From Escherichia phage EP1, in sequence record OR892555.1: a DNA stretch of 64,000 nt. One strand, written 5' to 3'. Positions 14,538 through 38,160 of the stretch are shown in pieces. Under the pieces are notes generated by a model, which ran no database searches, was not told where the DNA came from, and saw nothing but the letters and a program-made list of their open reading frames with translations. The translations under genes and the position numbers were made by a program. Each line of letters begins with the position of its first letter. The first letter of the stretch is position 1.

Positions 14538-14825
14538 TCAATCAAAAGTTACAAAGGTCACAGCCATAGCTGTTTTACATTTTTGTGGATTCACATCATG
14601 ATAGATGACTGAACAGTTGCCTGTTCCATCTGGTACTGGTTTTGTCCAAGTACGTCGAATACGTGGTTCACCAAGTTCACAAAGTTCTTTGTAGAATCCA
14701 TTTGTGTGATGGTCAATCATCTCAATAGCTAATGAGTCTGGTACATGACCACGAATCATATACATCTCACAACCATTACCAGCATCACTTACAAGTTCTT
14801 TTATTTCCCAATCTGTTCTAGCCAT
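14538..14825 (-). CDS. hypothetical protein
   Basis: 95-aa ORF. Confidence 0.5.
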   Translation of the reverse strand: MARTDWEIKELVSDAGNGCEMYMIRGHVPDSLAIEMIDHHTNGFYKELCELGEPRIRRTWTKPVPDGTGNCSVIYHDVNPQKCKTAMAVTFVTFD

Positions 14826-15333
14826 GATAAGTCGCCCTATAAACTGTCTCGAACTTCAACAAGAGAGATATTGCCAGAACTGCATATTCCTTGTCAAGCA
14901 TTGATGGCATATTATTTTTAAGATAATCTTTTTGTTCTTCATAGGTCATCTTAGGAGTGTTCATAATAGTCTCTCCCTGCTTCTGGTTATCAAGCTGAGT
15001 CTGGATAAACCAGTTAGAGCAATGATGCTCACCACCCTTTGTGACGGGCTTGTGGTGGCCTAATGTAAAGGCTTGCTTGCCAGAGTATCTGCATAGCTTA
15101 TTAAGTACTGCAATAGTATTCTTGACAACACAGTACTCATATAGGTTATCTATGGTGTAATGAGGGTAGTATCTGAAGAGTGATTTGTCACGGAAGCTTC
15201 CACGATTCCAAAGAACCATGTGATTAGAGTTTGAAGGGTCATATTTATGAGAGTCTATAAATTCTTGACGCTCATCAAAGTCAAGACGTAGAACAGACAT
15301 TGCAGCAGAACGTTTAAGATTTGAAAGATACAT
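14818..15333 (-). CDS. putative HNH-family endonuclease
   Basis: GHHKPVTKGGEHHCSNW...LDNQKQG resembles the HNH core (HH..P...GG...N). Confidence 0.35.
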   Translation of the reverse strand: MYLSNLKRSAAMSVLRLDFDERQEFIDSHKYDPSNSNHMVLWNRGSFRDKSLFRYYPHYTIDNLYEYCVVKNTIAVLNKLCRYSGKQAFTLGHHKPVTKGGEHHCSNWFIQTQLDNQKQGETIMNTPKMTYEEQKDYLKNNMPSMLDKEYAVLAISLLLKFETVYRATYHG

Positions 15334-19657: not shown

Positions 19658-19892
19658 TGTTCACCTCTGCCATAAAGTTTTGTAGTGTTCCAACCGGAGT
19701 CAGAACATTGCCATCAGTCTTCATGATGAATGGCATCTGACGAACTGGCATCTGTGCAATATCCATCAGTCCTGACAGTTCATAGTCCTGTCCTAACATT
19801 CTTACAACGTGGTCAATACCACGAGCCTTTGCAAAGTTCTTTGCAGTTTCACACTGAGGGCAACCAGTTTTTGAGTAAATTACGTAAGTCAT
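19650..19892 (-). CDS. glutaredoxin/NrdH-like redoxin
   Basis: 80 aa with CPQC active-site motif near N-terminus; sits beside nrdB. Confidence 0.6.
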   Translation of the reverse strand: MTYVIYSKTGCPQCETAKNFAKARGIDHVVRMLGQDYELSGLMDIAQMPVRQMPFIMKTDGNVLTPVGTLQNFMAEVNNA

Positions 19893-20965
19893 TAAGGAAC
19901 CTCTAAATATCCTGAGTTTAAATCATCTACAACGGTATTCAACAAGTACGCACCGTTTTGCTGTTCTTGGTTAGCATTCTGCTCTTTATCAATTTCCATC
20001 TTCTTAATCATGTATTTCAAAGGTGGTTCTTTAGGAGCTACGAAGTCTCTTGGAATACCAAACATATCATACAATGGTGCAGCGTTATAGTAAACCCACT
20101 CATGCAGAAGTTTTGTATTCAAACCAACTACGGCACGACATTCAGAGAAAATATAATAAGACCATTTCTCTTCACTTTCAACCACTTCATCAAGAATTAC
20201 TTTGATTTCTGGAAGAACCTGACGGAAAGCTTCTTGCCACTCTTCATCTTTCAAAGTTTCTTTCAGTGCTTCAATGTCAATCTTCGTGTGAAGGATTTCA
20301 TCAAGCATAATTTTCTGTACTGCCTGAGCAATACCTTGGAACTTATCTTGTGCATCAAGTGCAAAGGTACATGCAAAGGATGCCATAAAGGATACGCCTT
20401 CCAAGGCTGTTACTGCAAAGAGACCTTTCAAAATCACTTTGTGGAAGTGTAAAGGGTCTTTCTCAAGCAGTGAATCACGAACATAGCCTAAGCGATAGTT
20501 GATACCTTCGTCAAGTAGTTCTTCCAGTGCTCTGTTCACAGTCTTCAGACGGTCTTGCACAGCAGCATTCTGGTTAATCTCATCAAGGATTGTTTCAGGA
20601 TTCTTAATACACTGACGAACAATCTCTGAATAAGTCAAGGCATGAAGGTTCTCAATTTCAGATTGCTTCATAATTGCCGTTGCGTAGATATCATCAGAGA
20701 TGAATGGTGCAAAAGCAAATGCCAAACTCTTAGCAACCTGTGTATCAGCTTCCCACTGCCACTTAAGAATCTCAAGCATTACACCAGACATTGATTCTGG
20801 AACGCTTTCAAAGTCTAATCGTGACTGTTCAAACGGGAACTCATCTTCAGACCAGTCTTGTGCTTTCTGCTGTTTATACAGTTCAAAGATTTTTGGATAG
20901 TGTTTGTTGAGTGAGTCAAAAGTTTTTCGCTCACTCCCTAAAAAGATTGGATGTTGGTTAATCAT
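19892..20965 (-). CDS. nrdB: ribonucleotide reductase small (beta) subunit, class I
   Basis: 357 aa with R2-type di-iron ligand spacing; adjacent to nrdA. Confidence 0.9.
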   Translation of the reverse strand: MINQHPIFLGSERKTFDSLNKHYPKIFELYKQQKAQDWSEDEFPFEQSRLDFESVPESMSGVMLEILKWQWEADTQVAKSLAFAFAPFISDDIYATAIMKQSEIENLHALTYSEIVRQCIKNPETILDEINQNAAVQDRLKTVNRALEELLDEGINYRLGYVRDSLLEKDPLHFHKVILKGLFAVTALEGVSFMASFACTFALDAQDKFQGIAQAVQKIMLDEILHTKIDIEALKETLKDEEWQEAFRQVLPEIKVILDEVVESEEKWSYYIFSECRAVVGLNTKLLHEWVYYNAAPLYDMFGIPRDFVAPKEPPLKYMIKKMEIDKEQNANQEQQNGAYLLNTVVDDLNSGYLEVP

Positions 20966-21237
20966 TCTGGTAGTTTTCCTGTATTAAGAAATTCTCTGGC
21001 TTCAGATGTTGTCATTACAATCCAACGTTCAGTTTTAAACATATCAAGTGACCTTGCGTATGTCTGTCTAGGATTGAAACAATCAGTGTAGCGTATATGC
21101 TCTTTCCAAGAACCATCTGGCATCTTAACTTTTAAATCCAAATCTGCAATATAATACAGTGATTTTCTTGGTGCATAATACAAATACAACGAGCTATCTT
21201 TACTTCTTAGACTTGCAGCTTTGATAAGTTCTAGCAT
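20962..21237 (-). CDS. hypothetical protein inserted between nrdA and nrdB (start moved to internal ATG)
   Basis: ATG at 21237 with GGAGA RBS lies 55 nt after the nrdA stop; the longer track ORF overlaps nrdA. Confidence 0.35.
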   Translation of the reverse strand: MLELIKAASLRSKDSSLYLYYAPRKSLYYIADLDLKVKMPDGSWKEHIRYTDCFNPRQTYARSLDMFKTERWIVMTTSEAREFLNTGKLPE

Positions 21238-21292: not shown

Positions 21293-23527
21293 CTAAACAC
21301 CGCAACCCTCGCAGTAAGCATCTTGTAGTGCTGACTTACCAACACCGATACGACTGTTAAGGTAGTACATAGTCTTCATACCAACTGAGTTAGCATAAAT
21401 CATGTACTTCAAAGCTTGCTCTAATGATACCTTTTTCGATTTTGAATAGTCAACATAGAAATCTGAAGAGATAGCTTGACCAGTGAATTTTTGAACAATT
21501 GCATAGCAATCAATCATATCAAAGGTGTCAATATCCCAAGCAATTTCATAGACATACTTCAATTCTTCGTAATCTGGAACGATGAACAGGACGTTACCAG
21601 TTGCTGACTTCTTGGTTAAGATGAAGTCACGAATTGGATACAAACCATTTGTCGTATTAGTTGCCAGTGAAGAACTCTCGTTAGGCATGTAAGCCTCAAG
21701 TACAGAGTTTCTAATACCACCGTTTGCTTTAATACGGTCTGCTAAGTCATCCCAATCATAACGAAGTTTTGCATCGTGTTTTGTATCAATCTTCCTGTTA
21801 GCTGTCTTCGGAGGAACCCAACCTTCAGGGTACTTGGTGAACTTCATATATTCAGGTACACCACGTTCTTTTGCAAGTCTTAATGAAGCCTCATGCAGAT
21901 AGTAAGAGTGCATCTCTGCGAGTTCATGTAGCTTCGTTTTACCTGCTCTTGAAGAATAGTTCACGTAGTTCTTCGCAAGGTAATGAGCCACATTCGTAAG
22001 ACCAATCCCAACAGAACGACGTTTCTGAACGTGGTTACGCATTGACGGATACGGATAGTCCATAAGGTCAATAACGGAGTCAACCATTGCAAGAGCATAA
22101 TAAGCAACGTCAGCGTATTCATCTTCTGTGATTCTCCCTGCTACCAGACTAGCCAAGAAGCAAAGAGCAACTTCACCATCTTCTTTAGGTGCTGTGTAAC
22201 TGTAAAGGTCACGTTCATCTTCGAATCCGTGAACTGGCAATACAATTTCCATACACAAGTTAGACATTTTCAAAGGTTCTTTAAACGGTGTGTGAGTGTT
22301 CGCATTGTTCGTAAAGAACGGATACACACGACCTGTAGCATAACGTTGCTGGATGAACAACTTAGCAACTTCACGAGCCTTAACACGTTTATGCTTAACA
22401 CCTGAATGAACTGCGTGACCGACTGCCATAGCAAATTCATCAGCAGATGCTGTGTAGAACATGTCATAAAGCTTTGGAGCGTCCTTGTAAGAGAACAGCA
22501 ACCAATCTGTGTCGTACTGTACACACTGCCAGAAGTAATCATTTGCACCAAATGAATAATCCATCTCATTAATACGCTTAGAAGGAACCGTTGTAGGATG
22601 CTTCAAACGTAGTAAATCTTCAATCTGCGGGTCTATGGCAGTGTAGAAGTTGTTAGCTGAACCACCACGACTCTTCTGTTTATTAGCCTCTACAGCAGCC
22701 CGTACAAGTTTGTAGTAAGGCAGCTTACCCATGTGTTCAATGGTGTTTTGACGAATACCATCACCAATTGTACGGGTCTCCATCAGCATACCAATACCAG
22801 CTTGCTTCGTGGTCATATCATAAGCTACCTTAGTAGCAATACCAAGAGACTCAGCAGTGTCATTAGCCTTAATTAAGCAGCATGACGCATAACCTGACTT
22901 AGTAGCACGTAAACCATTCAGATAAGGCGTAGGAGCGTTAATCTTCAGGTCAGACAGGTAAGTATACAGATTGATAACATCTTCCAGTCTACGGTGCTTA
23001 GGTTGTCTCTCAAAGGCTTTCATAGCCATACCCATAAACATAAACTGTGGAGACTCAAACAGACGACCTGACTTGATATCTCGGATACCGTATTTGTCAC
23101 GGAACTGTTTCAGTACTGCATAGCCGTAAGAGATATCTTTTGAGTGAACAATGTGACCTTGCAAATAGTCAATCTCTTGTTCTGTGTAATCCATGTGTTC
23201 CCACAAACCCATTTGTTCCATCTTCATAACGAAGTTGAACAGTTGAGGAACTTTTGTGAAACCACCAAAAGCTTCTTTATAGATGATGCCAAGAAGTAAA
23301 CGACCAGCCATATCAGAGTATTCTTGAGTCTGCTTATCAATACAAACGTCAATCATAGCTTGGTGCATCTCTTTGGTAGAGCAACCTTCATAGACACGCT
23401 TCATAGCTTCCATAGTTACTTCTGACCAAATGATTCCTCGTTTGTCAGCCCATGAAGCCCATTTGTTTAAACGTTCTGGTTCGAATGGTACGATTGTACC
23501 GTCAGATTTGCGAATGGTCTTAATCAT
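21293..23527 (-). CDS. nrdA: ribonucleotide reductase large (alpha) subunit, class I
   Basis: 744 aa, ATP-cone N-terminus, C-terminal CEGCGV cysteine pair. Confidence 0.9.
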   Translation of the reverse strand: MIKTIRKSDGTIVPFEPERLNKWASWADKRGIIWSEVTMEAMKRVYEGCSTKEMHQAMIDVCIDKQTQEYSDMAGRLLLGIIYKEAFGGFTKVPQLFNFVMKMEQMGLWEHMDYTEQEIDYLQGHIVHSKDISYGYAVLKQFRDKYGIRDIKSGRLFESPQFMFMGMAMKAFERQPKHRRLEDVINLYTYLSDLKINAPTPYLNGLRATKSGYASCCLIKANDTAESLGIATKVAYDMTTKQAGIGMLMETRTIGDGIRQNTIEHMGKLPYYKLVRAAVEANKQKSRGGSANNFYTAIDPQIEDLLRLKHPTTVPSKRINEMDYSFGANDYFWQCVQYDTDWLLFSYKDAPKLYDMFYTASADEFAMAVGHAVHSGVKHKRVKAREVAKLFIQQRYATGRVYPFFTNNANTHTPFKEPLKMSNLCMEIVLPVHGFEDERDLYSYTAPKEDGEVALCFLASLVAGRITEDEYADVAYYALAMVDSVIDLMDYPYPSMRNHVQKRRSVGIGLTNVAHYLAKNYVNYSSRAGKTKLHELAEMHSYYLHEASLRLAKERGVPEYMKFTKYPEGWVPPKTANRKIDTKHDAKLRYDWDDLADRIKANGGIRNSVLEAYMPNESSSLATNTTNGLYPIRDFILTKKSATGNVLFIVPDYEELKYVYEIAWDIDTFDMIDCYAIVQKFTGQAISSDFYVDYSKSKKVSLEQALKYMIYANSVGMKTMYYLNSRIGVGKSALQDAYCEGCGV

Positions 23528-24966: not shown

Positions 24967-25193
24967 TAAACCTCCTGAAACAGTTTCTGCTGAGACTCAA
25001 TATAATCCAGTCGGCCTTTCAGTTCAACACGTTTGTTAATCAGGTGCTGAATCTGGGACTCAAGAGCCTCCATTTCGGACTCCGTAGCTTCTTTAGCTTT
25101 GACAATTGCATCTTTCAGTGCTGCAATGTGGCTGTCAATTTTAGCTACGTGGTCATTATTAATTTTGTTAAATATCATCTTATTCTCTCTCAT
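24966..25193 (-). CDS. small coiled-coil protein
   Basis: 75-aa ORF, heptad-like charged sequence. Confidence 0.4.
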   Translation of the reverse strand: MRENKMIFNKINNDHVAKIDSHIAALKDAIVKAKEATESEMEALESQIQHLINKRVELKGRLDYIESQQKLFQEV

Positions 25194-25680
25194 TAAGTTT
25201 CATGATTTTATGGATTCTCTTCTCAGCATCTTCATAAGTCTCTTTAGTCAGAAACTTGATTGCTGCAATGTTTGCATTGTAGAAGAGTCGAAGCTTGGAG
25301 TCAATCCTTTTTGTCATGACGTCAAACTTATGTTGAAGGTTAGCTTCTCCGTAGACCAAACCACCTCGCGTATAATAAGTTTGCACAATATAGAAGTCAA
25401 ACTCTTTTTCACAGAAAGTTTCAATATCTTTCTTAATATACTCAGAAGAGGTCTGGTAAACCATCCAGTCACTCTCTTTTGTCACAATCTTACGTCTGGT
25501 CTTCCCAGCTACTTTCTTCTTGGTGACATTATTAAACTGCTTCTTACCAATGTAATACTGTCCAGTCTTTTTGCAGTACACTAAGTAAACGAAACCAAAA
25601 TACTTAGCGGGGTCAATCTCCCCGCACAGTGAAATCCAATGTCCATATTCATGGCAATTGCCAAAACCTTTAATCTTCAT
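25180..25680 (-). CDS. GIY-YIG family endonuclease-like protein
   Basis: FGFVYLVYCKKTGQYYIGKK matches the GIY...YIG spacing. Confidence 0.5.
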   Translation of the reverse strand: MKIKGFGNCHEYGHWISLCGEIDPAKYFGFVYLVYCKKTGQYYIGKKQFNNVTKKKVAGKTRRKIVTKESDWMVYQTSSEYIKKDIETFCEKEFDFYIVQTYYTRGGLVYGEANLQHKFDVMTKRIDSKLRLFYNANIAAIKFLTKETYEDAEKRIHKIMKLNERE

Positions 25681-26710
25681 TCATAACAGGCTCCCAACCA
25701 TATTTAGCAAAGGTGAAATCGTCTTTAGGGTTACGCTCTTGATAGGCAATCCAGAAGTGCTGGTGCATCAGTTCAAGAGGTGTTTTTGTAATCACCTGAC
25801 CATCCCACGATTCATAAGTGTATGACTCTTTCTTAGCGTAGAGTCCATAGATAGCATCAAGACACTCTTTATAGGTCTCTTTACCTTCCAGAGCGTTCAT
25901 TACAGCAACTTTCCCTGCACCCTTAAGGCCAAAGTAGTTATCTGCGTTATCTCCTGCTACAGCTTGATAGCAGAGGAATTTAAAGCCTACACCAACAGTC
26001 TTTTTAGCTTTTGGCTTAGACTTGATAGGGCAATCCCAAATATCACCTACATTGCCATCTGCAATGAAAATCAGAGGGGCTTTCTCGTAAGTCATATCAA
26101 TACAGTAAGTTCCTTCCGCTTGGCGAAGGTCTTTGTCAATGCTCATAAGAGCAGCCTTCTTACCCATCTTCTCAGCTTTTGCAATAACAATGGAGTCAGC
26201 TTCAAAGCCACCTTTGAGAAGCTTAAACTCAGGTCGTGACAGAAGATACTCACGACAAGCAACTAAATGCGTAGGGGTTACTGATTCTTTACGGTTACCT
26301 TGATACTGGTGTTCAAGACCTTTAATGTCTTTGTGTTTGTGTACACCTTTTTCAGTAAGGTATCCCATCCAAGTTCGCTCTTTACCAACAACCTTCAACC
26401 ATTCCTGAAGAACTTGCTGAGTTGCCATAATAGCTTCTTTTTCACTCTTAGCTTCTTTCCAAGACTGTCTTTCCCATTCATCTTCATCGAATGCAAGACC
26501 AAGTTCCTCTGTCAGAACTCTCTGGTCAGATAGCCATTGATTAGCATCTTTAGCACTCTCAAAAGCATCAGACTCTTCAGCAGTGAGTTTATTCACATAC
26601 TTGTACTTTGCTTTCTCAACGACACAGGCTCCCTTGTAAGCGATACTGTCAGAGTCAATAAAGACATGTGTCACAGTATCTGGGAGTTTTGTTAATGTGT
26701 ACTTTTCCAT
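25670..26710 (-). CDS. 5'-3' exonuclease / flap endonuclease (RNase H-like)
   Basis: HVFIDSDSIAYKG N-terminal motif and H3TH-like AGDNADNYFGLKGAGKVAV. Confidence 0.7.
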   Translation of the reverse strand: MEKYTLTKLPDTVTHVFIDSDSIAYKGACVVEKAKYKYVNKLTAEESDAFESAKDANQWLSDQRVLTEELGLAFDEDEWERQSWKEAKSEKEAIMATQQVLQEWLKVVGKERTWMGYLTEKGVHKHKDIKGLEHQYQGNRKESVTPTHLVACREYLLSRPEFKLLKGGFEADSIVIAKAEKMGKKAALMSIDKDLRQAEGTYCIDMTYEKAPLIFIADGNVGDIWDCPIKSKPKAKKTVGVGFKFLCYQAVAGDNADNYFGLKGAGKVAVMNALEGKETYKECLDAIYGLYAKKESYTYESWDGQVITKTPLELMHQHFWIAYQERNPKDDFTFAKYGWEPVMNED

Positions 26711-32575: not shown

Positions 32576-35275
32576 ATGGAAAACGTAGATTTTGAAAACT
32601 TGCACTTGGTAGGTGATACAGAAACTGATGGGTTACTCCTTGAGTTCACAAAAGCACATGTAATGGCATTTGCAGATTACAAAGATGATGGTGATGAACC
32701 TGCTGTGTGGGTATTCACCGATGAACCTATTCTTGGTCACAAATGCACTAAGTACATCAAAGGTGGTCTTCGTGAAGGTGTAGAGTTTGCTCTCAAGGCA
32801 AAGCGTCTCTGTATTCATAACGGTCTTGGCTACGACTGGTGGGTGTTCAATCACATTGCACCGGACTTATGGAACTTTGACAATCCGAAGTGTAAACCTT
32901 GGGGAGACTTCTTTCAGGATTCTCTTATTCAGTCTCGTGTTCAGTGGATGGATAGACCTACACCAAAAGGTTACAAAGGTGCGCATGGTTTGGCTGCATG
33001 GGGTGCTCGTGTTGGTGTTCGTAAACCAGAGATTGAAGAGTGGGGTGTTTGGAATGCTGACATTCTGAACCGTGTTGTTGAGGATATTCGAATCAACGCC
33101 AAAACTAAACGTGCTCTTGATAACGAATACCTGAAGTTGAAGAAGTGTGGTGTAGACACTTACGAAACCTACATGCGAGCTAAAGAAACATCTTTCTGGA
33201 TGAGTCAGCAAGCCATCAACGGTTGGAAAGCTGATATTGAACTTATGCAGTTCCATGTCAAAGAACTTGACAGATTGACTGATGAATTAGCTGCTGAAGT
33301 TGAGCCTCATCTACCACCGACTATTAAGACGAAAGGTAAAGTTACTGGTGAAGAGTTTGCAAGGGCTTGGAACGAGTATGTTGAGACATTTGGTAAAGCA
33401 GATGGTCTGAAGCGCATCACTAAGTATCCAAAAACTAAGTTCCGTCAGCAGGTTCGTAATGGTGAGATGCAGACTTACGCTATCAAACCTTTTGGTAAAC
33501 CAACTACCAAGATTTTCAACATTGAGAAGCGTAACTGCTACACTCCAACTAACACGGTTACTGGAGAAGAGTACAAAGAAGGCTTCGTGGCAATGAAAGA
33601 TGCTCGTGCAGTTTGTAACGAGTTGAATGCTGCGATTGATAAGAAGTGCAAAGACTGGAAACCAGTTAAGACCGTGAAGACTGTGAAGTACTACAATAAT
33701 CACGTAGTAAATCACTTTGAACTTGAGTCAAGTCGTTACACAGGTTTGATTGATGCACCTTATACACCAATTGAGTTCGAAGTTTCACGCATGACTCAGG
33801 TTGCGGTTGTGAAGGATTATCTGAAAACTCTTGGCTGGATTCCTGATGACTGGAACTACAAGAAAGACTCTGATGGTCGTCCGGTGAAGGTTTGTCGCTT
33901 CAAAGACAACAAGAAGATGATTCGTAAACATCCGAAATGGCAAGAGATGGTGGAACGTTGCGGATTGAACTATGTTGAACATGAAGGTGTACAGTATATC
34001 GAACACAACTGGTCTGTGAAGAAGTACACAGATTTGCTTGAGCCTTGCTTGATTCGTACTTCACCGAAACTGACTGAATCATCTTACGATACAATTGAAG
34101 GTGAACTTGGACAGAAGATTGCGAAGTACTACACTTTGATGCACCGACGCAGAACTATTGAGAACTCAAAGGATGATGAAAAAGGTTGGTTAAACCAGAT
34201 TCGTCCAGATGGTCGTTTGAGTGCTGGTGCAATGGTGTTTGGTACTTCAACTGGACGCATGACACAATACGGAATTGTGAACGTACCTTCTGGTGCTGCT
34301 GTTTACGGTGAACCAATGAGGGCAGTCTGGATTTGTGAAGAAGGAACAAACGTAGTTTCCGTTGACATGAACTCTGCACAGCTTGTTTTACTGTGTAACT
34401 TTATGGGTGATAAAGAGTTCACCAAAGCGGTAACTCAGGGTAAAGAAGAGATTGAGTTTATCCGTCAGGAAGATGGCAGATATTACTGCAAACACTTTGA
34501 CGAATACCTGAATCCAGAAGTTGATAAGTATCTGCGTTATGACTCTGAAAACGACTTGTACGTAGTTTACTCAGGCACTGATGCTCATACACTGAACAGT
34601 ATCTACTTCAGCTTGAACGAAGAACAAGATATCTTGACTTGTCGTATGACTCAGGATGAAAATCTTCTTCACGAAATTAGTAAAGGTCGTAAAAAAGCTA
34701 AGAATGGTATCTATGCGTTACTGTTCGGTGCTGGTGATGAAAAGTTTGCTAAAACGATTAAAGCTGCGACTACTCAGGAAGGTGCATTGACTAAACAGAC
34801 TTACTTTGTGCGCTTGCCGAAGATTAAGAAACTGTTAGATGACTTGGAAGCTGACTTTAAGGCAACTAAGAAAGCACTTGAAGAGGTGTTTGGTAAAACT
34901 GCTGCAATTGCTAAAGGTGGTTTTGTCAAGGTAGCTGGAGCATGGTTGTGGTGTAAGTCTCCACACAAACTGTTAAACTATTTGCTGATGGGTTCAGAAA
35001 GTCAGGTTCAAAATGAGGCAATTAACCTTGCTTGTCGTAGAGCCTATGACGAAGGGTTGATGAAATTGAATGGACGTAAGCCAGCTATCGGCGCTAGGCT
35101 TCTTCTGGCATACCACGATGAGAATAGTTGGGAATGTCCAGAGAGTATGACTCAAGAAGTTAAAGCTATTACTGACTGGATGTACGGACAGGCTTCTAAA
35201 AACCTTGGGCTAAGGAAAGAAACTATGGTAACAGGTACTGGTAAGGTTGGTAAGAGTTGGTTGGAAGTGCACTAA
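32576..35275 (+). CDS. DNA polymerase, family A, with 3'-5' exonuclease domain
   Basis: 899 aa; exo motif VGDTETDGL; polymerase motif A DMNSAQLVLL, motif B KNGIYALLFGAG, motif C YHDE. Confidence 0.9.
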   Translation: MENVDFENLHLVGDTETDGLLLEFTKAHVMAFADYKDDGDEPAVWVFTDEPILGHKCTKYIKGGLREGVEFALKAKRLCIHNGLGYDWWVFNHIAPDLWNFDNPKCKPWGDFFQDSLIQSRVQWMDRPTPKGYKGAHGLAAWGARVGVRKPEIEEWGVWNADILNRVVEDIRINAKTKRALDNEYLKLKKCGVDTYETYMRAKETSFWMSQQAINGWKADIELMQFHVKELDRLTDELAAEVEPHLPPTIKTKGKVTGEEFARAWNEYVETFGKADGLKRITKYPKTKFRQQVRNGEMQTYAIKPFGKPTTKIFNIEKRNCYTPTNTVTGEEYKEGFVAMKDARAVCNELNAAIDKKCKDWKPVKTVKTVKYYNNHVVNHFELESSRYTGLIDAPYTPIEFEVSRMTQVAVVKDYLKTLGWIPDDWNYKKDSDGRPVKVCRFKDNKKMIRKHPKWQEMVERCGLNYVEHEGVQYIEHNWSVKKYTDLLEPCLIRTSPKLTESSYDTIEGELGQKIAKYYTLMHRRRTIENSKDDEKGWLNQIRPDGRLSAGAMVFGTSTGRMTQYGIVNVPSGAAVYGEPMRAVWICEEGTNVVSVDMNSAQLVLLCNFMGDKEFTKAVTQGKEEIEFIRQEDGRYYCKHFDEYLNPEVDKYLRYDSENDLYVVYSGTDAHTLNSIYFSLNEEQDILTCRMTQDENLLHEISKGRKKAKNGIYALLFGAGDEKFAKTIKAATTQEGALTKQTYFVRLPKIKKLLDDLEADFKATKKALEEVFGKTAAIAKGGFVKVAGAWLWCKSPHKLLNYLLMGSESQVQNEAINLACRRAYDEGLMKLNGRKPAIGARLLLAYHDENSWECPESMTQEVKAITDWMYGQASKNLGLRKETMVTGTGKVGKSWLEVH

Positions 35276-35284
35276 GGTATTGAA

Positions 35285-35797
35285 ATGATTACAGAAATTC
35301 GATTAAAGGAGATTTTAAAGTATGACCCCGATACAGGGGTCTTTACTTGGAAATTCAGAGAAGGTAATGCAAACTTTAACTCCAGATTTGGAGGCAAGAG
35401 GGCTGGAAACTACAGAACAAATACTGATGGTCACAAATCTGTCCAATTGCTGATTGATGGAAGGAGCTACCAAGCAAATCGTTTAGTTATCTTGTATATG
35501 GATGGATACCTACCCGATAAATCTTTACAGGTTGACCACAAAAACTGTGATGGATGGGATAACAGGTATTTGAATTTGAGGGTTTGCACAGCTTCACAAA
35601 ACTCTTGCAATCGGTCTAAGAAGTCTCTATCAGGTTTACCAAAAGGTGTTCAGAAGATAAGGAAACGTTTTAGGGCAATGCTTCGTTTGCAAGGAAGGAA
35701 TTACCATCTTGGGATGTTTGACACGCCTGAAGAAGCCCACGAAGCTTACTGTGAAGCTGCTATAAAACTCCACGGAGATTTTGCAAAACTTAGTTGA
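35285..35797 (+). CDS. HNH homing endonuclease with AP2 DNA-binding domain
   Basis: VDHKNCDGWDNRYLNLRVCTASQN HNH core; C-terminal AP2-like segment. Confidence 0.75.
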   Translation: MITEIRLKEILKYDPDTGVFTWKFREGNANFNSRFGGKRAGNYRTNTDGHKSVQLLIDGRSYQANRLVILYMDGYLPDKSLQVDHKNCDGWDNRYLNLRVCTASQNSCNRSKKSLSGLPKGVQKIRKRFRAMLRLQGRNYHLGMFDTPEEAHEAYCEAAIKLHGDFAKLS

Positions 35798-35822
35798 CAA
35801 GGTGCTCATGGAAGAGTACCAT
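35794..35822 (+). promoter_or_regulatory. sigma70-like promoter (TTGACA-17 nt-TACCAT) for downstream small genes
   Basis: consensus -35, TAnnnT -10, GGAG RBS before ATG at 35850. Confidence 0.45.
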
Positions 35823-35849
35823 ATACTATATATTGTATAGGAGACTTGT

Positions 35850-36050
35850 ATGACTATTTCAGAAATTGAAGTTCAACTGCAATGTGCTGGATACTCTCAA
35901 AGTGAGATTGAGTCTATGTGCATCATCATTTGCAGTAGCCATAAGCACCTCAAGCTTTCTAATGAAAATCTTCGCAAGGTTGATATTTTTATTGCTGGAG
36001 GTAAGATTATCAAGGATAAGACAGGCTACCTTAAAGGTGAACGTCTATGA
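35850..36050 (+). CDS. hypothetical protein
   Basis: 66-aa ORF with RBS. Confidence 0.45.
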   Translation: MTISEIEVQLQCAGYSQSEIESMCIIICSSHKHLKLSNENLRKVDIFIAGGKIIKDKTGYLKGERL

Positions 36051-36256
36051 GCCATCGTGGAAGAACTCATCTCGCCATGATGCAAGGGGCTTCAAAAGAG
36101 ACTATCAAGAATCGGAAGAAAACTCTTTTTGACAGAATGAATAGACTCATTGATAATGCAAGCCTACCTAACTCTGAAAAGGTTTTCTTGAAAGGGAATC
36201 TGAAGAGTATCGCACAGGAACTTATTGACATTGAATTTTGGAGACACCAAAAATGA
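36047..36256 (+). CDS. hypothetical protein
   Basis: 69-aa ORF, start overlaps upstream stop. Confidence 0.45.
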   Translation: MSHRGRTHLAMMQGASKETIKNRKKTLFDRMNRLIDNASLPNSEKVFLKGNLKSIAQELIDIEFWRHQK

Positions 36257-36504
36257 GCAATAAAGAGCAAGAAGCTTTAGCAATCTTCAAGAGCGAAGAC
36301 AAATCAATAGCTTTTGTCTCAGAGGCTTGGTGCAGAGATTTGGGGTATGATTGGTATCTCTTCTTATGCGCTAAGAAAGATGTTAAACCAGTTGATGAAA
36401 CCCGATTCAAAGAACTGTATAATATCTGCCAAGAGGGTTATGAAGAACATTACGAAGGTTCTTTGAATCTTGTAAATTCAAAAGCTTCAGACTTATTTTA
36501 TTGA
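36253..36504 (+). CDS. hypothetical protein (start moved to internal ATG)
   Basis: GGAGA RBS before ATG at 36253. Confidence 0.45.
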   Translation: MSNKEQEALAIFKSEDKSIAFVSEAWCRDLGYDWYLFLCAKKDVKPVDETRFKELYNICQEGYEEHYEGSLNLVNSKASDLFY

Positions 36505-36514
36505 GAGGTTCAAA

Positions 36515-36760
36515 ATGTTAAAATTATTGATACCAGCTTTAGTATTCTTACTGGTGGGGTGCAACCCTTCTTATGAGAATAAGGATGCCTCTTACAGACT
36601 TCCTCCAGAAATGCAAGACTGCAAGATTTACAAGCTTAATGGTGATGCCATTAGCAAAGATGTTATTGTAGTTCGCTGCCCAAATTCTCAGACGACAACT
36701 TCTTACAAGTATGGTAAGAATAATCAGTCACACACCACAGTTTTTGATGGAGGATATTGA
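36515..36760 (+). CDS. putative lipoprotein
   Basis: signal peptide with LVGC lipobox. Confidence 0.5.
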   Translation: MLKLLIPALVFLLVGCNPSYENKDASYRLPPEMQDCKIYKLNGDAISKDVIVVRCPNSQTTTSYKYGKNNQSHTTVFDGGY

Positions 36761-36761
36761 T

Positions 36762-36968
36762 ATGCAGGTTCTGGTAAACTTTATCTATAAGTATGAAAAC
36801 ATCTTCAGCACTATGACTGTAGCTCAACGCAATCCGGTTATCCCACGAGAAGGGGAGACTGTTGAGATTAATGATTGGAACTACAGAGTTGAAGAGGTCA
36901 AGCATAAACTTAAAGATGGTTATGACCACCAAGTTGTAAATGTGTATTTAAAAGGTAAGTGGCAATGA
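36762..36968 (+). CDS. hypothetical protein (start moved to internal ATG)
   Basis: GGAGG RBS before ATG at 36762. Confidence 0.4.
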   Translation: MQVLVNFIYKYENIFSTMTVAQRNPVIPREGETVEINDWNYRVEEVKHKLKDGYDHQVVNVYLKGKWQ

Positions 36969-37059
36969 GAGTCTTACATATCATCTCTGAAGATTTTGGA
37001 GGGTGCTCTTGGCACTCATTTTTCACAAAAGGCTGTCTAGCTTGTGAGGCACGTAATAA

Positions 37060-38160
37060 ATGACAATTCTGTACAAACAAAATAAAGATGGTTCTTTCAA
37101 CGTCTGGTCATGTGTTGCTGTAGGTGATAAAGTCGTCACAACTTATGGTAAAGAAAATGGCAAGATGATGTTTGAAGAGTACACAGCAGAACCTAAGAAC
37201 ATCGGTAAGAAGAATGAGCGTAATGCTGAACAGCAAGCTCTCTTTGAAGTTGCTGCTAAGTACAAGAAGCAGGTTGACCGTAAAGGTTATGCTTATTCAA
37301 AATCTGAAGCAGAGAACACTGAAAAGGTTGGTGTACAACTCGCACAAGATGCTGCAAAGGTAAGCCATGCCAAGTATTTGAAGTTCCCTGCTGATGCTCA
37401 ACCTAAGCTTGATGGTGTTCGTTGCCGCATATCAAGAGATGTTGACTCAGTGAACTTCACAGCTTATTCCCGTGAAAATACTGTGTACAACGTACCTGAA
37501 GAGTTGATTCCAGATTTACTCATGATGCTTAAACTCCATAAAGATGTTGATGATTTTGACGGTGAGATTTATGCTCATGGTTGGGACTTGGAAGATATTG
37601 TATCTATGATTAAGAATGCTGACAATCCAGACCGTCACCTGCTTAAATTCTACTGGTATGATATCTGTGATAAAACTAAAACTTGGCCTGAGCGTCGTGG
37701 AATCATTGATAACTCACCAATTGTTGAACTCGGTGATGCTTGCAGAGTTGTGCCTGTTCAAACTATCCGTGTCAACTCTTGGGAAGAGTTCGACAAAGCC
37801 CATGATAATTGGGTTAAGCTGAAGTTTGAAGGGGCTATGTACCGTTCAATCTCTGAAGAATCTTTCTACGAGTGTAGTCACCGTTCATACTTCTTAATCA
37901 AGCATAAGAAGATGCACACTGAAGAGTTTAAAGTAACTGGTGTGAAGACTGATAAACGTGGTCATGGTAAGTTCGTTGTAGAAACTCTTCCTAACGTCTT
38001 TGTAGATGTTTCATGGAAAACTACCCATGATAAGAAACAGTATCTTGCTGAACATCCTGAAGAGTTTATCGGGAAGCCTTTGACGGTTCAGTTCCAGAAG
38101 ATGACTCGTAAGGGGTCTTTACAGTTCCCTGTTGGCCTCGTTATACGAGATTATGAATAA
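37060..38160 (+). CDS. ATP-dependent DNA ligase
   Basis: adenylation motif I KLDGVR (KxDG) with ligase-like downstream motifs. Confidence 0.8.
   Translation: MTILYKQNKDGSFNVWSCVAVGDKVVTTYGKENGKMMFEEYTAEPKNIGKKNERNAEQQALFEVAAKYKKQVDRKGYAYSKSEAENTEKVGVQLAQDAAKVSHAKYLKFPADAQPKLDGVRCRISRDVDSVNFTAYSRENTVYNVPEELIPDLLMMLKLHKDVDDFDGEIYAHGWDLEDIVSMIKNADNPDRHLLKFYWYDICDKTKTWPERRGIIDNSPIVELGDACRVVPVQTIRVNSWEEFDKAHDNWVKLKFEGAMYRSISEESFYECSHRSYFLIKHKKMHTEEFKVTGVKTDKRGHGKFVVETLPNVFVDVSWKTTHDKKQYLAEHPEEFIGKPLTVQFQKMTRKGSLQFPVGLVIRDYE

Follow-up and report, generated by a model that had tools for sequence, protein, structure and literature searches.

A free-standing HNH-AP2 endonuclease gene behind the DNA polymerase gene of a Suspvirus phage, probably acquired by homing together with the polymerase 3' end

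The HNH-AP2 gene and its site downstream of the polymerase gene

The window analyzed here is a stretch of 64,000 nucleotides of DNA from Escherichia phage EP1 (OR892555.1). BLAST searches with its polymerase region and its first 25 kb against approximately 50,000 phage genomes assigned it to Suspvirus within the Ounavirinae (Felix O1-like myoviruses). SUSP2 was 95% identical to it over 25 kb, and in the polymerase region the identities were 95% for mistaenkt and CHB7 and 86–89% for Mooglevirus and Felixounavirus phages. The family-A DNA polymerase gene, pol (32576–35275, plus strand; Pfam DNA_pol_A, 2.5e-14; phrog_17, 5e-112), encodes 899 amino acids without interruption. It adjoins a gene for a predicted homing endonuclease (HEG; 35285–35797, plus strand; 170 amino acids), of which it is the probable target gene. 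All four ORFs that the initial annotation had listed as likely free-standing homing endonucleases, namely this one and ORFs 14818–15333, 20962–21237, and 25180–25680, were found at those coordinates.

The HEG protein combined an I-HmuI-like HNH domain with a C-terminal AP2 domain. Its HNH_3 catalytic core (PF13392; residues 63–107, positions 35471–35605, as delimited by the Pfam envelope and the alignment with I-HmuI) scored 42.7 bits against a curated cut-off of 24.8 (E = 4.3e-11). The AP2-type DNA-binding domain (approximately residues 121–166, positions 35645–35782; three strands and a helix) matched Pfam AP2 with E = 3.8e-5 and 24.4 bits, below the gathering cut-off of 33.3, and in a search of solved proteins the C terminus gave a weak match to plant AP2/ERF domains. 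Both PF13392 and PF00847 were present in most database homologues. Among the PHROG families the protein matched phrog_99, "HNH endonuclease" (2e-57), and the nearest solved protein by sequence was I-HmuI (PDB 1U3E; E = 0.008), the alignment spanning the DH...N...NLR...N motif. Residues D84, H85, N93, N97, R99, and N109 were invariant in an alignment of 37 homologous sequences. The AlphaFold model built on that alignment was confident (pLDDT 92.3); it resembled a solved HNH homing endonuclease in fold, and its C-terminal domain, in line with the profile match, presented a three-stranded sheet on a C-terminal helix. The HNH_3, AP2, and phrog_99 matches confirmed the earlier description of an HNH endonuclease with an AP2 domain following the DNA polymerase gene. 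Between HEG copies of the type found in the window (type A, see below), dN/dS was 0.07–0.11, indicating purifying selection on the protein, and the reading frame had its full length in all type-A carriers. Paralogues elsewhere in the window were found neither by tblastn with the HEG types A, B, and C, an Endo VII-type ORF, and the extra ORF of 3HA14 nor by hmmsearch with three family profiles against the 271 ORFs of at least 60 amino acids. An NCBIfam search with the four flagged ORFs returned nothing useful.

The HEG starts 9 nt past the pol stop codon (TAA, 35273–35275; ATG at 35285), a gap essentially as reported before (10 nt), and it is read in a frame other than that of pol. Because the ORF begins beyond the pol stop and no Rfam intron was present, the gene was deduced to be free-standing; an intron-encoded HEG was ruled out, as there was no Rfam match in the window at the gathering threshold or around the HEG at E ≤ 1. 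Read directly from the sequence, the short spacer (35274–35284, plus strand) contains AAGG, an SD-like sequence, 7 nt ahead of the HEG start codon. A promoter scan upstream of the HEG found none, and an RNA structure sequestering the HEG start was ruled out (z = −0.55). Given the lack of a promoter of its own, the HEG probably depends on the pol transcript for its expression. Several seg and mob genes of T4 are likewise promoter-less cassettes (PMC2988022). At the other end of the gene, a sigma-70-like promoter sequence, TTGACA-17-TACCAT (35794–35822, plus strand; a consensus match only), overlaps the HEG stop codon with its −35 box.

This box marks the landing site. In Sf14, whose site is empty, the pol stop codon is followed by 5 nt and then by GTTGACAAGG; in the window the identical GTTGACAAGG comes after the HEG, and alignment with relatives placed the HEG stop codon TGA within TTGACA. 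Relative to the empty sites of Sf14, 3HA14, and wV8, the insertion is precise. Forty-four loci were classified, comprising the window, 11 GenBank relatives, and 32 IMG/VR contigs that a search with the pol C terminus had retrieved. TTGACA lay either 5–6 nt (empty sites) or approximately 508–534 nt (occupied sites) beyond the pol stop, and at each occupied site the HNH-AP2 gene belonged to lineage A, B, or C, the three being 43–55% identical to one another. Type A was found in the window, KPS64, Alf5, and PC79-13 (89–94% amino acid identity to the window), type B in mistaenkt, CHB7, and Michonne (43%), and type C in SUSP1 and Sf13 (49–55%). When an empty-junction query was used and 30 evenly spaced records were taken from the 281 that matched, 8 ran on without interruption across the junction and 15 carried an insert of approximately 500 bp annotated as HNH or homing endonuclease; the occupancy figures rest on these two samples, the 44 loci and the 30 of 281 BLAST matches. 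Type A was found in 25 records from three genera, in each as a single copy and at no other place than behind pol. The best database matches to the window HEG were 91–94% identical. The KPS64 allele is 94% identical to it, and KPS64 is a Mooglevirus, whereas the window has a Suspvirus backbone. Close relatives thus differ in the presence or absence of the gene after pol, with precise empty sites, and for ORF 35285–35797 the insertion pattern of a mobile HEG, as originally proposed, holds.

To the right, the type-A HEG of the window and the type-B HEG of mistaenkt do not differ at any position in their final 68 nt (100% identity); the remainder of the two genes is 56% identical. When all three types are compared, identity is 84–100% in the final 70 nt and 56–64% in the rest of the gene. 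This 3' module (35730–35797, plus strand), common to all HEG lineages at the site, is a plausible and probable right-hand homology arm for the replacement of one lineage by another. The cassette downstream (35793–37100) is 97.5% identical to that of the Mooglevirus Sf14 and 96.9% to that of mistaenkt, and it differs strongly from those of SUSP1 and the Felixounaviruses. All candidate donors are 97–99% identical in the downstream DNA, so that the boundary of the conversion on this side cannot be placed.

The polymerase 3' end and the proposed history of the site

Eleven pol genes, each of 2700 nt, were compared in a gapless alignment. Over nt 1–2400, the window was 96–97% identical to the Suspvirus phages mistaenkt, CHB7, and SUSP1 and approximately 86% identical to the others, including KPS64. 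Over the last 280 nt, it was 76–79% identical to the Suspvirus phages and 91% identical to the Mooglevirus phages KPS64 and Sf13. Divergence from mistaenkt rose from 3.3% (nt 1–2424) to 21.2% (nt 2425–2697), and a step from 3–4% to 21–24% at nt 2425, near window position 35000, was found against each of mistaenkt, SUSP1, and CHB7. KPS64 (type A) diverged from the HEG-free 3HA14/Sf14 by 1.5% before and 25.6% after nt 2464; these phages are 98% identical in pol, with zero differences at nt 2242–2463 and then 60 in the last 234 nt. Alf5 (type A) and wV8 (empty site) differed at 3.7% of positions up to nt 2461 and at 25.7% beyond it. Sharp steps therefore recur in three independent backgrounds. 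Visual choice of the breakpoints inflates the significance implied by the very small Fisher p-values; nevertheless, the step at the 3' end of pol is large and replicated.

The divergent tract, which we call haplotype II (35000–35275, plus strand), was recognized by this step and by its affinity to KPS64 and Sf13, and it is co-inherited with the type-A HEG. Approximately 10 amino acid changes fall in its 93 codons versus 1–3 in the remaining 806, and the two C-terminal haplotypes of the polymerase can be written as RRMI..LLC..T..A..V..Y and RRAY..LLL..N..Q..I..M. Dense blocks of multi-nucleotide differences lie at pol nt 2464–2471, 2521–2532, 2577–2579, and 2605–2607 (window positions 35039–35046, 35096–35107, 35152–35154, and 35180–35182). 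The tract is a candidate location for differences in the endonuclease target or in immunity to it. Taken together, the pol 3' tract and the HEG are 92% identical between KPS64 and the window, and dS between the two HEG copies is 0.28.

Haplotype II was present in every type-A carrier, and haplotype I was present in most empty sites. A haplotype II-like tract was also seen in three VpaE1-like empty-site genomes (L031–L033), in two type-B carriers (L015 and L027), and in Sf13 (type C), so that an exclusive association of haplotype II with the type-A HEG was ruled out by the VpaE1-like empty sites and some type-B and type-C carriers. Given this occurrence outside type-A carriers, the tract may have a different origin, either as a polymorphism of greater age that recombines on its own or in connection with the pol intron that those non-type-A genomes carry. 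The phylogeny of the flank nonetheless followed the HEG and not the backbone, even though haplotype II occurs in some HEG-free genomes as well. A step of this kind beside an HEG is the classic signature of co-conversion, and we infer that the tract was co-converted. The predicted mosaicism by gene conversion is accordingly seen at the pol site, where the 3' tract beside the HEG switches its phylogenetic affinity.

The affinities described above showed that the segment from approximately 35000 to at least 35729, that is, the pol 3' tract and the HEG, came into the Suspvirus backbone from a donor resembling the Mooglevirus phages KPS64 and Sf13. We consider it probable (roughly 0.8) that ORF 35285–35797 is a functional intron-less HEG that was brought in together with the pol 3' tract by homing and that the other three flagged ORFs are vertically inherited residents. 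In a mixed infection, the enzyme would nick or cut a rival genome without the allele, in or near the last 240–275 nt or so of pol, and the lesion would then be repaired by recombination with the HEG-carrying genome, whereby the HEG and the neighboring 3' end of pol would be copied across. The landing site is the intergenic interval flanked by the pol stop codon on one side and, on the other, by the promoter-like box ahead of the following cassette. In the window, the incoming segment would have replaced an earlier content of the site, at which type B or type C is present in the phages most closely related to the window. Haplotype II would represent the uncut, immune variant of the target.

It is improbable, in our estimation, that the HEG is instead a decaying or inactive remnant, passively carried, and that the mosaic arose by ordinary homologous recombination among co-infecting Ounavirinae. 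Mosaicism does exist elsewhere, the cassette 35793–37100 being 97.5% identical to that of Sf14 while pol is 86% identical, and haplotype II is found in HEG-free genomes too; the nuclease activity of the HEG protein is itself predicted from motifs. A passive remnant would hardly account for a full-length frame in all type-A carriers with invariant catalytic residues, for a dN/dS of 0.07–0.11, for recombination boundaries that abut the HEG in three independent backgrounds, or for three lineages at exactly one site.

Still less probable is a domesticated HNH-AP2 protein, acting either as an AP2 transcription factor on the adjacent promoter-like box or as a nuclease that excludes competitors, so that its position would reflect its function. 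AP2 domains are sequence-specific DNA binders, the HEG stop overlaps the TTGACA box preceding the next cassette in every genome, and marker exclusion by an HEG favors the carrier phage (PMC2988022). However, approximately one third of the sampled relatives lack the gene at this site and are yet viable isolates, three divergent lineages are interchangeable there, and a protein acting purely as a regulator would have no use for the nuclease motif, which is conserved.

Returning to homing as the preferred explanation, we tentatively suggest an extension of it. The three mutually exclusive lineages may evict one another by way of their shared last 70 nt or so and the downstream flank, and the pol haplotypes may be susceptible and immune alleles, in which case an ongoing arms race would be reshaping the C terminus of an essential polymerase. 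This extension and, separately from it, a domesticated status of the GIY-YIG gene discussed below are possibilities that we hold with considerable doubt.

The three other flagged ORFs

ORF 25180–25680 (minus strand; 166 amino acids) encodes a SegE-type GIY-YIG nuclease domain (PF19835, residues 22–138 of 166; E = 5.7e-26, 91.6 bits versus a cut-off of 25) and overlaps by 11 nt the 3' end of the exonuclease gene (25670–26710; phrog_107, 4e-62). A GIY-YIG-like ORF next to a flap exonuclease gene, as had been annotated, was thus verified. At 60% identity or more, the protein occurred in approximately 297 phage records, essentially all Ounavirinae in the collection, and in these the gene almost always stood beside the 5'-3' exonuclease gene. 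Its identity to the window followed the phylogeny (Suspvirus 98.8%, Mooglevirus 93%, Felixounavirus 85%, Erwinia phages 62%). FGFxY...YxGKKQ, E112, N114, R131, and N135 were invariant. Many homologues of 128–132 amino acids consist of the nuclease domain alone, and family members of that length therefore have no C-terminal DNA-binding domain. More distant single-copy homologues (30–39% identical) were found in cyanomyophages, with 307 Synechococcus-phage records among the matches, and in roseophage DSS3_VP1; there too, the gene lies beside a 5'-3' exonuclease gene. The gene is labeled "NAD synthetase" in RefSeq and PHROG and "GIY-YIG homing endonuclease" in relatives. PDB sequence searches with this ORF and with ORF 14818–15333 gave nothing meaningful.

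The near-universal presence of the GIY-YIG gene at the same locus, without presence/absence polymorphism among relatives, and its phylogeny-following identity led us to regard it as a conserved resident nuclease gene and to discard its assignment as a mobile HEG. That this core-only gene has been domesticated and serves as a housekeeping nuclease is a separate suggestion, held with the same doubt as the mutual eviction of HEG lineages. The genuine site of mobile HEGs in this neighborhood is the exonuclease/GIY-YIG junction and not the GIY-YIG gene. The junction (25670–25690, minus strand) is an empty landing site in the window and is occupied in relatives: in CHB7, a 491-bp insertion there encodes an HNH-AP2 protein (L044:1278–1778), and an extra piece at the same junction is also present in EcSzw-1/2, Moogle, Sf14, Sf16, ESh22, and Henu11/12.

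ORF 14818–15333 (minus strand) is a conserved Ounavirinae ORF that may encode a divergent protein of the beta-beta-alpha-metal (HNH) type. It had been described as an HNH-like ORF following the Prs-like gene; the ORF is present, but its HNH-type matches are weak, its PHROG (phrog_3500) is of unknown function, and a 95-amino acid ORF stands between it and prs. It contains an invariant motif, GH[HY]..GG.HH.SNW.IQ..DNQ.Q, that resembles H...N...N, and its structural model shows a strand-strand-helix arrangement at residues 89–122. Profile and fold searches with the protein gave no significant match. Its homologues are confined to Ounavirinae-type phages. At least 80% of the length of the surrounding 2-kb region was aligned in 207 of 238 records, and in the best 40 of these 238 the region was a single piece without indels. 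With its region conserved in this way and not polymorphic, the ORF does not qualify as a mobile HEG.

The small ORF 20962–21237 (minus strand) does lie, as had been noted, between nrdA (21293–23527) and nrdB (19892–20965), its stop overlapping the nrdB start by 4 nt. Its only family match was phrog_2652, function unknown, and Pfam and further profile searches found no nuclease or other domain. Without a nuclease signature and with its region aligned in 249 of 258 records, it gives no support to the mobile HEG proposed there.

Of the mobile status that had been suggested for all four ORFs, only that of ORF 35285–35797 is therefore retained, the other three being conserved at the same loci, a pattern that the initial annotation had itself named as grounds for refutation. 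That these three are further mobile free-standing HEGs is very unlikely, for although the SegE_GIY-YIG match is strong, relatives carry the annotation "GIY-YIG homing endonuclease," ORF 14818–15333 has weak HNH matches, and mobE of T4 sits between nrdA and nrdB (PMC2988022), all three are found at the same locus in essentially all Ounavirinae with identity following phylogeny, they overlap the start or stop codons of their neighbors in an operon-like manner, the GIY-YIG family mostly lacks a DNA-binding domain, and the nrd ORF lacks a nuclease signature. An over-annotation is thereby corrected: genes labeled "GIY-YIG homing endonuclease" and "putative HNH endonuclease" behave as conserved core genes.

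Comparison with known systems

Endonucleases of this kind have been annotated in Felix O1-like phages before. KPS64 gp36 is 94% identical, occupies the same position, and is annotated "HNH endonuclease" with AP2/ERF InterPro domains; Michonne gp37, directly after pol, is annotated "HNH homing endonuclease, contains AP2/ERF domain"; and Alf5_095 is another annotated HNH-AP2 endonuclease of this phage group. With annotated relatives at the same position, the HEG is already known in kind and place. The window copy is a sequence variant of the same kind that stands in a Suspvirus and not a Mooglevirus backbone. Felix O1 has six HNH endonuclease genes, none of them in introns or inteins (PMC3185647), and two HNH endonuclease genes were reported for Moogle (PMC4319497).

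I-HmuI of Bacillus phage SPO1 (PDB 1U3E), with approximately 20% sequence identity, is intron-encoded and has a C-terminal helix-turn-helix module, whereas the window HEG is free-standing and has an AP2 domain in that place. A closer parallel in genetic organization is provided by MobA–MobE of T4. Like these, the window HEG would be a promoter-less HNH cassette in an intergenic position beside an essential nucleotide or replication gene (PMC2988022), and it shares with them presence/absence polymorphism, co-conversion of the flank, and probable nicking (PMC2988022), the last two being predictions from sequence for the window HEG. The free-standing endonucleases of T4 have distant cleavage sites and cause co-conversion and marker exclusion, and MobA and MobE nick DNA (PMC2988022); the mechanism proposed for the window HEG agrees with this behavior. 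The T4 Mob proteins belong to Tevenvirinae phages, in contrast to the Ounavirinae considered here, and differ from the window HEG, which is of the HNH_3 type with an AP2 domain, in both HNH subfamily and DNA-binding domain. The window ORF between nrdA and nrdB is not an analogue of MobE.

SegH and Hef replace mobC and mobE in T4-related phages, according to Sandegren et al. 2005 as cited in PMC2988022. The two cases agree in having different HEGs at one intergenic site in different relatives and differ in that the occupants of the site downstream of pol share one architecture and a nearly identical stretch of approximately 70 nt at their 3' end. The shared stretch suggests that recombination inside the HEG, and not independent invasion by unrelated families, accounts for the replacements.

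The locus is a tidy natural case of probable intron-less homing outside the T-even phages. The near-isogenic pairs with and without the HEG, KPS64 versus 3HA14/Sf14 and Alf5 versus wV8, would be convenient for measuring homing and marker exclusion, and mixed infections do arise in the phage therapy and biocontrol cocktails in which Felix O1-like phages are used.

Barth et al. 2023 (PMC10448857) described, in ICP1 and other phages, nuclease genes that adjoin essential genes and coincide with limits of genetic exchange. The "HEG islands" there exceed 10 kb, whereas the detectable tract in the window is shorter than 1 kb and is bounded by a single HEG; in the window, too, the exchange boundary is next to the HEG, lying approximately 275 nt inside pol. 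With its three lineages, shared 3' module, and replicated boundary in pol, the site is a clean illustration and not a new phenomenon, and it leaves the current understanding of homing endonucleases unchanged.

A second landing site at the exonuclease/GIY-YIG junction

The junction between the exonuclease gene and the GIY-YIG gene (window 25670-25690) is a second polymorphic landing site for homing endonuclease genes. It is unoccupied in the window, and in the Suspvirus CHB7 it is occupied by an HNH-AP2 gene of 491 bp (L044:1278-1778, the CHB7 junction locus). The same extra piece was found at this junction in EcSzw-1/2, Moogle, Sf14, Sf16, ESh22, and Henu11/12. Beside the insertion, the final ~60 nt of the exonuclease gene are divergent.

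The family of the neighboring GIY-YIG gene (window 25180-25680) is labeled "NAD synthetase" in RefSeq records and in PHROG phrog_447. The window gene matched Pfam SegE_GIY-YIG at 5.7e-26, and the label is likely a propagated misannotation, one that extends to hundreds of cyanophage records as well.

The homing endonuclease gene and the interval up to the DNA ligase gene

One feature resembling a terminator was flagged inside the HNH-AP2 gene: in its 5' end, at the codons for the conserved YDPDTGVF, a GC-rich hairpin with a perfect 6-bp stem (GACCCC-GATACA-GGGGTC, window 35324-35341) precedes a stretch rich in T. This feature may be either a coincidence or an attenuator of expression of this gene.

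Between the HNH-AP2 gene and the DNA ligase gene lies a cassette of small ORFs (window 35793-37100), which is 97.5% identical to its counterpart in the Mooglevirus Sf14 and 96.9% identical to that in mistaenkt, whereas the polymerase genes of the window and Sf14 share just 86% identity. In the Suspvirus SUSP1 and in Felixounaviruses, the counterpart is largely unrelated. Judged from these sequences, the whole cassette looks to have been exchanged recently between genera. A further indel hot spot of the interval is the position directly before the DNA ligase gene at which phage 3HA14 harbors an additional 178-aa ORF of unknown function (L010:5030-5563, its polymerase-region locus). This ORF is absent from the matching point of the window (about 36969-37060), and tblastn revealed no homologue of it across the window.

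Polymerase interruption in relatives and RNA genes

In Salmonella phage PC79-13, the polymerase gene is split between ...NGIYA and LFGAGDE... by an insert of ~800 nt (L005:3040-3830), and it is split at the same point in VpaE1-like IMG/VR contigs (L030-L035). The window polymerase gene is continuous at the corresponding position (about 34715-34720) and has no insert. The insert contains a 160-aa Endo VII/HNH-type ORF with the motif DHDHKTGKVRGMLCHNCN. Rfam Intron_gpI matches flanking this ORF scored 26.5 bits (E=1.7e-4), below the gathering score of 50. The insert is probably a group I intron carrying its own homing endonuclease gene.

Over window positions 1-64000, no Rfam family, tRNA included, reached its gathering score. 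Felix O1-like phages typically have a tRNA cluster, which must be located beyond this 64-kb window.
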